A program made the translations under genes and the position numbers. This document shows positions 7,755 through 10,879 of a DNA stretch of 64,000 bases, piece by piece; position 1 is the stretch's first letter, and each line of letters begins with the position of its first letter. The notes beneath the pieces are model-generated. The model saw nothing but the letters and a program-made list of their open reading frames with translations. It had not been told where the DNA came from and searched no databases. The DNA lies in assembly GCA_024280115.1 (NCBI GenBank), contig JAJRQT010000230.1:146-64145 (forward strand), written 5' to 3'. Source of the DNA: Bacteroidota bacterium. Lineage in GTDB: Bacteria > Bacteroidota > Bacteroidia > Cytophagales > Cyclobacteriaceae.

Positions 7755-9878
7755 ATGTTAAGCCAAATACTGTCAACTATTTTCTTGTTTCATTCTTTTT
7801 TTACTATTGCCCAAACTAGTGATAATTTACCCGCTAGCGATTTACTTCAAAGAGCTTACAATTTTCAAGAGGAAGGCAAACGCGACTCTGCTATTTATTA
7901 TTTTGAAAAAGCAAGCATCAATTACAAAAAGGAAGAAGTATGGCAGAAATACATTGAATGTCTTGCCGGAGAAAACAGAAACTATCTGCGTACCGACCGG
8001 ATAGGGGATGTAGAGGCAAAAGCAACTGAGGCCTTAAAAATTGTTGAAGACGGAAAAGCAAATGAAATTGATGAATATGTGATTGAAGTTCATACCCAAT
8101 TGGCCAGATATTATTGGTATGCCAAGGGGAATTTTCCCGATGCGCTTGATTTGCTTGATAATGGTCTTGCAATTTGCGAAAAAGCCGGTTTTGATACAGA
8201 AAGGCGAAGGATTCAGATATATACGGATTATGGATATACCTATGGGTATTCCGGTGATTTTGATAATTCTTCTATTTATTTTACAAAGGCGCTTAATCTA
8301 AGCAGAAAGGTATATGGAGAAAATGCCGATGTAACTGCTGATCGATATACAGACATGGTTTTTCCATTGATACAGAAATCTGAATGGGAAAAAGCAGAGG
8401 TGGCATTGAAAAAAGCCACTGAATTAAATATTAAAAATCGTGGACCGGAACATATAAGCGTTCTGAAAAACTATAATAACCTGGGATATATTTACCTGGA
8501 AAAATTCGATAATGATCTGGCCATACTTTATTTGAATAAGGCCATAGAACTGATTAGAAAACAATATGGTGAAAATCACCGATCCGTTGGTATTGGATAT
8601 ATGAATCTGGGTGCGAGCTATTCTAATAAAGGAGATTATAGAACTGGAATAAAGTATACTACAAAAGCAATTGATAACTTAAAAATTTCAATTGGTAAAG
8701 ATAATCCGTATATGGGTCTTTGCTTTCTTAATTTGGGCAATCAGTACAACCATTTGGAAAAATATGATTCCGCAGAACATTTTTACGAAAAGGCGCTTCA
8801 ATTTAAGATTGCCCTTTACGGAGCAGAACATCATGAGGTAGTTGAAATGTATGGTTATTTATCTGATTTTTATTTAAAAACCAACAGGTATGATGAGGCT
8901 TTGGTTGTTGCTGAAAAGGCCGGAGATATCGCATCAAGGATATTGCCGGACAAGCATAAACACAGTGCAAACAATCATTTATATTTATCACAATACTATG
9001 CCGCAGTTGGTAATTACAAGGAGAGTCTCGATGAAGCCCAATTGGCAATCATTGGTTTGGCACCTGATTTCAATGATAAAGATATAACTTCCAATCCAGA
9101 CTTAAACCAGGATATCATTTCTACCAGAATTCTTATAGATATACTTATTCATAAGACGCGAACATTAGCAGAGTTTTATGAAGAAACTGGTGAATATGAA
9201 TATCTTATTATGGCCCATCAAACAGCAGAAGTTACAGATATGGCTCTTGATATATTGAGAATCGAATATCAAACGCCTGATTCTAAAGAGATCCTGTTAT
9301 CAAGATCAAAAGATTTTTATGAAAATGCCATAGATATTGCCTTTCAGTTATTTGAGTACAACAATTCAAATACCTATTTAGATCAGGCCTTTAAATATTT
9401 TGAAAAAAGTAAGTCTATTCTATTATTAGAAAACATAAAATCTAATCTGGATGTGGCAACTACAGGAGTGCCCGATTCCATAGCAATTGAAGAAAAATCA
9501 TTGTCCAGATCCATTGCATTTTATAAAGAAAAAATATTTGAGGCCAAAAATAATAACGATACAGTGCAACTTGCCAGCTTGGAAAATGCTTTCTTTCAAA
9601 AGATGAGAGACTATGATCTATTGTTAAACCTTATAGAGGAGCAATATCCGGAGTATTATTCAATAAAGCATACAATATCAAGTGCGACGCTTAAGGAAGT
9701 TCAAAACCATCAAAATGATCAAACTGTGATCATAGAATATTTTTATGGGAATGAACATATCTATGCCCTTGCAATATCAAAAGCAAATGTCACTCCTCTG
9801 AGAATAAAAAAAGAGGAACAACTGGAGACAGAATTAAATAGTTTTATACAGGGATTCGAAAAAAAAAATTTGATCTAA
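7755..9878 (+). CDS. TPR-repeat N-terminal portion of a TPR-CHAT protein (frame-interrupted gene, part 1)
   Basis: Hydrophobic leader 'ILSTIFLFHSFFTIAQ'. Many TPR-like units ('YNNLGYIYLEKFDNDLAILYLNKAIEL', 'YMNLGASYSNKGDYRTGIKY', 'FLNLGNQYNHLEKYDSAEHFYEKAL'). The frame ends at TAA 9876-9878, immediately after the A10 run. Confidence 0.8.
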   Translation: MLSQILSTIFLFHSFFTIAQTSDNLPASDLLQRAYNFQEEGKRDSAIYYFEKASINYKKEEVWQKYIECLAGENRNYLRTDRIGDVEAKATEALKIVEDGKANEIDEYVIEVHTQLARYYWYAKGNFPDALDLLDNGLAICEKAGFDTERRRIQIYTDYGYTYGYSGDFDNSSIYFTKALNLSRKVYGENADVTADRYTDMVFPLIQKSEWEKAEVALKKATELNIKNRGPEHISVLKNYNNLGYIYLEKFDNDLAILYLNKAIELIRKQYGENHRSVGIGYMNLGASYSNKGDYRTGIKYTTKAIDNLKISIGKDNPYMGLCFLNLGNQYNHLEKYDSAEHFYEKALQFKIALYGAEHHEVVEMYGYLSDFYLKTNRYDEALVVAEKAGDIASRILPDKHKHSANNHLYLSQYYAAVGNYKESLDEAQLAIIGLAPDFNDKDITSNPDLNQDIISTRILIDILIHKTRTLAEFYEETGEYEYLIMAHQTAEVTDMALDILRIEYQTPDSKEILLSRSKDFYENAIDIAFQLFEYNNSNTYLDQAFKYFEKSKSILLLENIKSNLDVATTGVPDSIAIEEKSLSRSIAFYKEKIFEAKNNNDTVQLASLENAFFQKMRDYDLLLNLIEEQYPEYYSIKHTISSATLKEVQNHQNDQTVIIEYFYGNEHIYALAISKANVTPLRIKKEEQLETELNSFIQGFEKKNLI
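9859..9868 (+). repeat. A10 homopolymer containing an in-phase A_AAA_AAA slippery heptamer at the TPR/CHAT frame break
   Basis: Frame 0 reads GAA AAA AAA AAT TTG ATC TAA. The -1 frame is open from 9842 and reads ...KKKFDLKISYSVFTKILKPFISSGMLTEVKQITFIPDGVLHYIPFE into the CHAT domain. Confidence 0.9.
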
Positions 9879-9931
9879 AAATTTCTTATTCTGTTTTTAC
9901 TAAAATTCTAAAACCATTTATTTCCAGCGGA

Positions 9932-10879
9932 ATGTTGACCGAAGTTAAGCAAATAACTTTCATTCCTGATGGCGTGTTACACTACATTCCATTTGAGATA
10001 TTGATAACTTCAATTGAAGGGCCGGCTGATAAGAAATATCTTATTCAGGATTTCACGATTAATTACCTGCATTCTACGGGCTTCACTGAACTTTATCAAA
10101 ATACAGAATCCCAGAGTCTGACGTATATGGGTTTTTCTCCGGGATATAAACAAGAATCTGAAGCTTTGTTGGCATCCCGTTCGGCAAGAGACAATCAAAT
10201 AGCAGGCATGCTGCAAAAACTTCCTATGGCAGAAGAGGAAGTTAAAAACTCTGCGTCTTTATGGAATGGAGACTATTATTCTAATGAAAATGCTACCGAA
10301 GAAAATTTTAAACGATTTGCCGGGGATGCCGGAATAATACACATCGCCTCTCACGCAATAATTGATGATGAAGAACCAATGAATTCCAAACTTGTTTTTT
10401 CTCCAGGCGCAGATACACTGGAGGATGGGCTATTACATACCTACGAATTGTATAATATGAAATTAAACGCCCAGTTAGCATTTCTAAGTGCCTGCAATAC
10501 AGGCTTCGGCCAGATAAAAAGTGGCCAGGGAGTTGTAAGTCTGGCGAAAGGATTTTTTTATGCAGGGGTTCCCAATGTGATGATGAGTCTGTGGTCTGTT
10601 CCTGACAAATCAACCTCAGAAATCATGATATATTTTAATAAAGAACTAAAGAAAGGCGTGGGAAAAGCAGACGCATTGCGCAATGCTAAACTCAAATTTC
10701 TGGAAACTGCTGATGAGAATACATCAGATCCTTACTATTGGGCTGCATTTACAATGATCGGAGACAATGAGCCTTTGAAAACCAATAGTGTTTTCCCATA
10801 CTGGCTTATTGGAATTGTTGTGCTTGTGATAATTGGCGGAGGAAACTTTTATATGAAAAAACAGAAAGCCCAAACTTAA
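9932..10879 (+). CDS. CHAT (caspase-like) protease domain plus C-terminal TM anchor (frame-interrupted gene, part 2)
   Basis: 'IIHIASHAIID' supplies the catalytic His context. 'LAFLSACNTGFG' supplies the catalytic Cys. 'DPYYWAAFTMIGD' is a typical CHAT C-terminus. The terminal helix is 'FPYWLIGIVVLVIIGGGNFY'. The frame is open upstream to 9842. Confidence 0.85.
   Translation: MLTEVKQITFIPDGVLHYIPFEILITSIEGPADKKYLIQDFTINYLHSTGFTELYQNTESQSLTYMGFSPGYKQESEALLASRSARDNQIAGMLQKLPMAEEEVKNSASLWNGDYYSNENATEENFKRFAGDAGIIHIASHAIIDDEEPMNSKLVFSPGADTLEDGLLHTYELYNMKLNAQLAFLSACNTGFGQIKSGQGVVSLAKGFFYAGVPNVMMSLWSVPDKSTSEIMIYFNKELKKGVGKADALRNAKLKFLETADENTSDPYYWAAFTMIGDNEPLKTNSVFPYWLIGIVVLVIIGGGNFYMKKQKAQT

Follow-up and report, generated by a model that had tools for sequence, protein, structure and literature searches.

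A gene for a predicted TPR-CHAT protease is broken within a run of ten adenines (A10) in the 64,000-nucleotide stretch of Bacteroidota DNA analyzed here, hereinafter the window, which comprises positions 146 to 64,145 of contig JAJRQT010000230.1 (assembly GCA_024280115.1; Cytophagales, Cyclobacteriaceae). The TPR part of the gene forms an upstream open reading frame (ORF) that ends at a TAA stop (9876-9878), 8 nt past the A-run, and the CHAT part follows in the -1 frame. The relevant features are as follows:

7755..9878, forward strand: upstream ORF of 707 aa, with a signal-peptide-like N-terminus (MLSQILSTIFLFHSFFTIAQ), TPR repeats and a conserved pre-CHAT region
9859..9868, forward strand: A10 homopolymer, the site of the frame break, as read from the sequence
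9860..9866, forward strand: A_AAA_AAA heptamer, in X_XXY_YYZ phase relative to the ORF at 7755-9878
9842..10879, forward strand: open region of the -1 frame, 345 codons, with the full CHAT domain, ending at TAA 10877-10879
9932..9934, forward strand: first ATG, GTG or TTG of the CHAT frame, an ATG, 54 nt past the upstream stop
10799..10852, forward strand: hydrophobic helix at the C-terminus (YWLIGIVVLVIIGGGNFY) with a KKQK tail after it, a predicted membrane anchor

In frame 0, the junction reads ...CAG GGA TTC GAA AAA AAA AAT TTG ATC TAA, and the -1 frame opens at 9842, directly after a TAG at 9839-9841. Addition of one A to the run yields a single read-through protein of 1041 aa, and a -1 slip on the heptamer at 9860-9866 would give a protein identical to that translated from an A11 mRNA. 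The break can be placed within the A-run itself: the orthologues of the protein match frame 0 up to ...GFEKK and the -1 frame from KFD... onward, with no alignment gap. By this comparison, the true or ancestral in-frame site would be 11 nt long, of either the AAA AAA AAA or the AAA AAA CAA type. The rest of the 3.1-kb gene contains no second lesion. A preliminary description of this DNA had reported the split inside A10 with the downstream part in the -1 frame, and its coordinates and arithmetic all proved correct; likewise, the frameshift-compatible phase that it assigned to the heptamer matches the ORF at 7755-9878 on re-reading, and the 1041-codon gene that it restored with one extra A is recovered both by translation and by the gap-free alignment of orthologues. 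The same description had pointed to A10 as the longest A-run noticed, and this is indeed the sole A/T run of at least 10 nt in the window; the A9 runs that it listed as in frame (24011, 47716, and 50982) lie within open frames of 143, 375, and 385 codons, respectively.

The two parts of the gene encode readily recognizable domains. The upstream ORF contains a TPR_12 match (E = 5.9e-42) and aligns to residues 1-704 of the orthologues, and the -1 frame encompasses the CHAT domain (PF12770; E = 1.3e-60, 205.8 bits vs. a cut-off of 24), in which the His motif HIASHA (10340-10357) and the Cys motif SACNTG (10487-10504) are intact; H863/H867 and C914 correspond to invariant columns across the orthologues and are present in the window protein. 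Hydropathy exceeds 1.6 solely at residues 1008-1035 of the fused protein, that is, at the C-terminal helix, and a hydrophobic segment is found at this position across the orthologues. The intact gene is accordingly predicted to encode an exported, membrane-anchored TPR-CHAT protease, and the predicted C-terminal anchor is missing from the 707-aa product. Moreover, residues ~520-700, upstream of the break, are conserved along with CHAT, so that the 707-aa product is not a clean module. Translation from the ATG at 9932 produces a protein of 315 aa that lacks a signal peptide as well as ~20 N-terminal residues of the Pfam CHAT domain.

The order of the domains, TPR followed by CHAT, and the intact caspase-like His and Cys motifs are features that the protein shares with TPR-CHAT proteases (PF12770). 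The solved example of a TPR-CHAT protein is Csx29 of the type III-E CRISPR systems. Unlike Csx29, the window protein combines a signal peptide with a C-terminal membrane helix, is preceded by a DUF4412 gene and has no Cas genes among its neighbors; membership in the Csx29/Craspase family was rejected (NCBIfam NF041237, 32.5 bits vs. a cut-off of 300). A search of the PDB sequences with the protein returned no match. The protein is a generic TPR-CHAT protease.

Orthologues and a second break at the same codons

The read-through protein was searched against 40 related genomes and a collection of 5.8 billion proteins. These searches yielded ~20 orthologues (33-75% identity), each encoded by one ORF (1014-1054 aa) with TPR as well as CHAT domains; apart from these, the list contains just the 707-aa fragment of the window itself. 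Across the junction, the read-through protein aligns gap-free to the orthologues (local consensus FE-x-K-x-FD; window GFEKK|KFD), in which Lys codons are frequent at the position of the A-run (FE-K/x-K-x-FD). The closest orthologue (L013, 75% identical) reads GAA AAA AAA CAA TTT in frame, i.e., A8-C-AA; the one from G007 (60%), the sole orthologue found in the same genus, reads GAA AAG AAA AAA TTC, i.e., A4-G-A6; and the orthologue from the species represented by the P0013 cluster has A6-GG at this site. L013 and G007 read interrupted runs in frame; the A10 run and the break are thus not conserved, and the uninterrupted run together with the frame break is confined to the lineage of the window. 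The A10 run could have been derived from an L013-like state via the loss of the single C, or via a C>A change followed by the loss of one A.

The comparison of orthologues that the preliminary description had proposed thus recovered the fused gene in all ~20 cases, and the split layout or an uninterrupted run in none. Among the explanations that it had put forward, conditional expression of the protease, by programmed frameshifting or by phase variation, is disfavored by these comparative data, with ~20 orthologues encoded as single ORFs, the closest one reading A8-C-AA in frame and the break not conserved; a fresh pseudogene and a homopolymer error both remain.

A break at the same codons was detected in another species. 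The 90%-identity cluster of P0013 represents a species whose protein is 58% identical to the window protein and comprises ~25 contigs from Joint Genome Institute (JGI) metagenomes. In one of these (L014; JGI sample 3300070204; 5073-5135), the orthologue is split on a single contig into a TPR protein of 725 aa and a CHAT protein of 301 aa, and the 24 other contigs of the species carry an intact 1036-aa protein. Compared to L015, GAAAAAAGG is shortened to GAAAAAGG in L014, with A5 in place of A6 at the corresponding FEK|RKFD codons; this is the only gap in 6083 aligned nt, in a strain that is 99.6% identical. The A10 run is the longest homopolymer in the window gene, the homologous run of L013 (A8) is the longest in that gene, and the run of L015 is one of just three runs of at least 6 nt. 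Because the run is among the longest homopolymers of the gene, the junction is a recurrent slippage hot spot, and independent hits at the same codons are expected from slippage, with no functional explanation required.

In the 90%-identity clusters of ten orthologues, the only members apart from full-length ones are fragments on short contigs, the P0013 cluster being the exception; the location of these short forms on short contigs points to truncation at contig ends. Within the P0013 cluster, two members (P0126 and P0129) are broken elsewhere, near GEKNPY, and in L014 an insertion sequence (DDE_Tnp_1) lies directly after the truncated 3' end of the TPR-CHAT gene.

The TPR-CHAT gene is accessory, an orthologue having been found in only one of the 11 other genomes of the genus (G007). 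The relatives and the window both have a DUF4412 gene upstream of the TPR-CHAT gene, in support of orthology. In the relatives, DUF4412 is immediately 5' of the TPR-CHAT gene; in the window (983-2005 and 2230-7594), the two are ~5.7 kb apart, and the ORFs between them, among which is a tandem pair of 230 aa each, have no match in Pfam.

Long A/T runs and other broken genes in the genome

Contig C42, which holds the window, is part of a 7.2-Mb draft (G000; 236 contigs, minimum contig 2.5 kb, 37.6% GC, 95% completeness) that looks like a metagenome-assembled genome (MAG). A/T runs of at least 10 nt number 28 genome-wide vs. ~87 expected from the base composition, an under-representation of at least 3-fold; long A/T runs are avoided in bacteria generally, as documented in the survey of Baranov et al. 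2005 (PMC1088944). The presence of an A10 run alone is not beyond chance, and it is the coincidence of the frame break with the run that is non-random. Among coding runs, 8 of 9 A/T10 and ~95 of 96 A/T9 are in frame, and the frequency of breaks climbs with length, from ~1/780 for coding A/T8 to 1/96 for A/T9 and 1/9 for A/T10.

A genome-wide scan for neighboring ORFs on the same strand in different frames produced 45 candidates, most of which were dismissed as separate genes lying side by side, each with a start and a signal peptide of its own. The four candidates that combine the longest junction runs with credible homology are the TPR-CHAT gene on C42 (A10) and the following three:

C17:6509-6517, minus strand: DUF3887 plus alpha/beta hydrolase gene split at A9; a single 466-aa ORF in a genome of the same order (G025)
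C58:97604-97611: amine-oxidase-like flavoenzyme gene split at A8 into the Rossmann N-terminus and the remainder; a single 530-aa ORF in G027 and G002
C30, ~12987-13021, reverse strand: GT4 glycosyltransferase gene split at A7 into the N and C domains

All four broken genes lie outside the core housekeeping set. The possibility that the assembly is riddled with homopolymer errors was rejected, with just four credible poly-A splits among thousands of runs, and no second copy or strain-variant contig of the TPR-CHAT locus was found in the assembly, which contains one locus only. The occurrence of poly-A breaks in unrelated genes, at a rate that rises with run length, is a generic slippage signature and not a device of the CHAT gene.

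The break on C17 is shared with relatives. A 131-aa DUF3887 ORF ends at A9-GAR-stop, and in both G000 and G005 the -1 frame then encodes the alpha/beta hydrolase. The A9-GAR-stop arrangement is common to three species of the genus: G000 (CATCAG-A9-GAATAG), G005 (L018, G005:C11, ~49665-49715; CCTGTT-A9-GAGTAG), and G010 (L024, G010:C36; CCCGTT-A9-GAGTAA). G000 retains an intact hydrolase part, which carries further breaks in G005 and is missing from G010 and G001. Because three species share this break, it is not an assembly error in one of them and, on the evidence of these sequences, is certainly genuine, which shows that heritable poly-A frame breaks occur in this lineage and raises the prior that the break on C42 is genuine as well, without proving it. 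The C17 arrangement reflects either a shared frameshift of old date or a slippage site that has been conserved, and as a candidate for recoding it surpasses the TPR-CHAT gene.

Within the window itself, 2.2 kb upstream of the TPR-CHAT gene, a small secreted-protein gene (5122-5524) has a decayed appearance: re-translation gives MKTTVKFY*, a signal-peptide-like continuation in another frame and then a third frame, with both frame shifts at non-homopolymer sites.

Interpretation of the break

The break of the gene in the assembled sequence, its exact position in the A-run, the intact state of the orthologues and the lack of conservation of the site are direct observations. We favor, with a probability of roughly one half, the interpretation that the break is a real, non-programmed, lineage-specific one-base slip in the DNA, and that the gene is a fresh pseudogene or a strain variant. 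On this interpretation, which includes the inference that the DNA is truly A10, a recent slipped-strand deletion would have removed one base from the longest homopolymer of the gene. Standard decoding of A10 would then produce a 707-aa secreted TPR protein that lacks both the protease and the anchor, and the CHAT part alone, without a signal peptide or a proper start, would have no function as a separate gene. Given that the lesion sits in an A10 run, the pseudogene is probably leaky: a minority of transcripts altered by RNA-polymerase slippage could encode proteins of 1041 aa (A11 mRNA) or 1040 aa (A8 mRNA), and rare -1 slips of the ribosome on A_AAA_AAA could also result in the 1041-aa protein. 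Some full-length protein made via RNA-polymerase slippage on A10 is plausible, but it would be incidental, a by-product of the run that is not selected.

In favor of a real change are the accurate assembly of other long runs, the genuine break on C17, the accessory character of the gene, and the presence of the decayed-looking gene 2.2 kb upstream. Several considerations weigh against it. The A10 count rests on the single consensus of a MAG-like assembly, and a scan of metagenome and genome collections for the two flanks, matched exactly and separated by a run of variable length, gave no hits. An under-call of one base in a run of 10-11 nt is the classic direction of technical error. Furthermore, the gene is otherwise flawless over 3.1 kb, which equally fits an artefact or a very recent mutation, and a relative-rate test on the CHAT half, comparing the window with its sister P0003 against 15 outgroups, counted 6 vs. 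6 unique changes at conserved columns; there is thus no age signal, and artefact and recent mutation are not separated by this test.

Baranov et al. 2005 (PMC1088944) surveyed the class of ORFs that are disrupted at A/T runs of at least 9 nt and are restorable by RNA-polymerase slippage. The window locus resembles the members of this class in that the gene is intact in relatives, carries a one-base error in a long A run and would be restored to frame by a non-templated A, and the under-representation of long runs in this genome agrees with the prediction of that survey. More specifically, a single ORF in relatives, a break within the run and its restriction to one lineage, which together characterize ORFs disrupted by homopolymer frameshifts, are all found here. 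The locus thus falls within an already well-described class and is nothing new in kind. Slippage on runs of comparable length has been described: the A8 run of apoB gives about a tenth of full-length product and rescued a frameshift mutation, and the A9 run of Thermus dnaX gives ~50% of shifted product (PMC1088944). For the window locus, slipped transcripts and the formation of some full-length protein are inferred from the DNA consensus.

The principal alternative, which we consider possible although rather unlikely, is a consensus or sequencing error: the organism would in fact have A11, encoding FEKKKFD like the G007 orthologue, and its 1041-aa gene would be intact, the assembler or the sequencing chemistry having under-called the run by one. 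The draft, with its 236 contigs, is MAG-like, and the steep rise of break frequency with run length would be expected from technical slippage as well; the frame is restored by +1 nt in three of the four broken genes, the TPR-CHAT gene shows neither a second lesion nor a sign of relaxed constraint, and its A11 version aligns gap-free to the orthologues. However, the assembly keeps the frame at 8 other coding A/T10 runs and at ~95 A/T9 runs, and at least one poly-A break of this assembly, that on C17, is certainly genuine, being shared by two other species. Moreover, the four broken genes include no core housekeeping gene, and the decayed-looking small gene at 5122-5524 is broken at sites that are not homopolymers.

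Reversible phase variation, in which replication slippage would switch the exported protease ON (A11 or A8) and OFF (A10) and the assembly would have caught the OFF state, appears improbable. Tracts of this length are known from contingency loci, the product is predicted to be extracytoplasmic, and a strain of another species has independently lost one base at the same codons. Nevertheless, the tract is located two-thirds into the gene and not at its 5' end or in the promoter. Furthermore, contingency loci have long tracts that are kept in relatives and enriched in the genome; here, the orthologues keep no long tract (A8-C-AA, A4-G-A6, A6), and long A/T runs are depleted at least 3-fold genome-wide.

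Even less credible is selected recoding, under which the A10 run or the heptamer would be kept for the sake of a set ratio between a soluble TPR-only protein and an anchored TPR-CHAT protease. The local layout is suggestive, with the heptamer in phase, a run of at least 9 nt, a stop 8 nt past the run, and a break just upstream of the Pfam boundary of CHAT that leaves both parts intact. As in E. coli dnaX and the sites of the IS3 family, an all-A X_XXY_YYZ heptamer in phase is combined with a nearby zero-frame stop. Unlike those sites, that of the window has no hairpin or pseudoknot in the stimulatory position 5-9 nt past the heptamer, ends in A instead of the G of the efficient A_AAA_AAG, and is not conserved, and the two-frame layout likewise does not recur among the orthologues. 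No stimulatory RNA structure was detected after the site, where 94 nt (9867-9960) fold at -8.6 kcal/mol vs. a mean of -8.74 for shuffled sequences (z = 0.05), in agreement with the doubt that the preliminary description had expressed about a downstream hairpin or pseudoknot.

Transcriptional slippage offers another parallel. In the tssM1 gene of Citrobacter rodentium, an A11 run gives rise to mRNAs with 10-15 A's, and tssM of Yersinia pseudotuberculosis, a second genus with this arrangement, also undergoes transcriptional frameshifting, with both forms and their ratio needed for function (PMC4256274). The window locus is similar to tssM1 (PMC4256274) in the poly-A run (A11 in tssM1, A10 in the window) that precedes a premature stop, in the location of the C-terminal domain in the other frame, and in the short and full-length forms that could be produced. 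The features common to the slippage sites of Thermus dnaX, mxiE, and tssM1 that are found here are an A/T run of at least ~9 nt and a nearby stop in the templated frame; conservation of the run and of the frame offset in relatives is not, and in contrast to the recurrence of the tssM arrangement in a second genus, 0 of the ~20 TPR-CHAT orthologues share the layout of the window. Selection for recoding is further disfavored by the absence of the break or of an uninterrupted run from every orthologue, by the lack of downstream structure, by the similar breaks in unrelated genes of the same genome, and by the conservation of residues ~520-700 with CHAT. It is conceivable, with a very low probability, that A10 is a young functional slippage site that provides a tssM1-like fixed mix of a soluble periplasmic TPR-only protein and a membrane-anchored TPR-CHAT protein and that newly evolved in one Cytophagales lineage; if so, the recurrent breaks at the same codons in another species would hint that the junction is favored for uncoupling the sensor from the protease. 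Finally, a working two-gene system was rejected outright, given that the CHAT ORF has no signal peptide, is short of ~20 residues at the beginning of the domain, and has its first start codon 54 nt past the stop of the upstream ORF.

With respect to annotation, the 707-aa and 315-aa ORFs are to be treated as one disrupted TPR-CHAT gene, and not as two genes or a recoding site. The case illustrates clearly how the longest homopolymer in a gene acts as its weak point, given that two species have independently been hit at the same codons. A more useful lead is the A9 frame break on C17 (G000) that is common to three species of the genus. As for the organism itself, if the break in the TPR-CHAT gene is real, it probably makes little of the exported protease.

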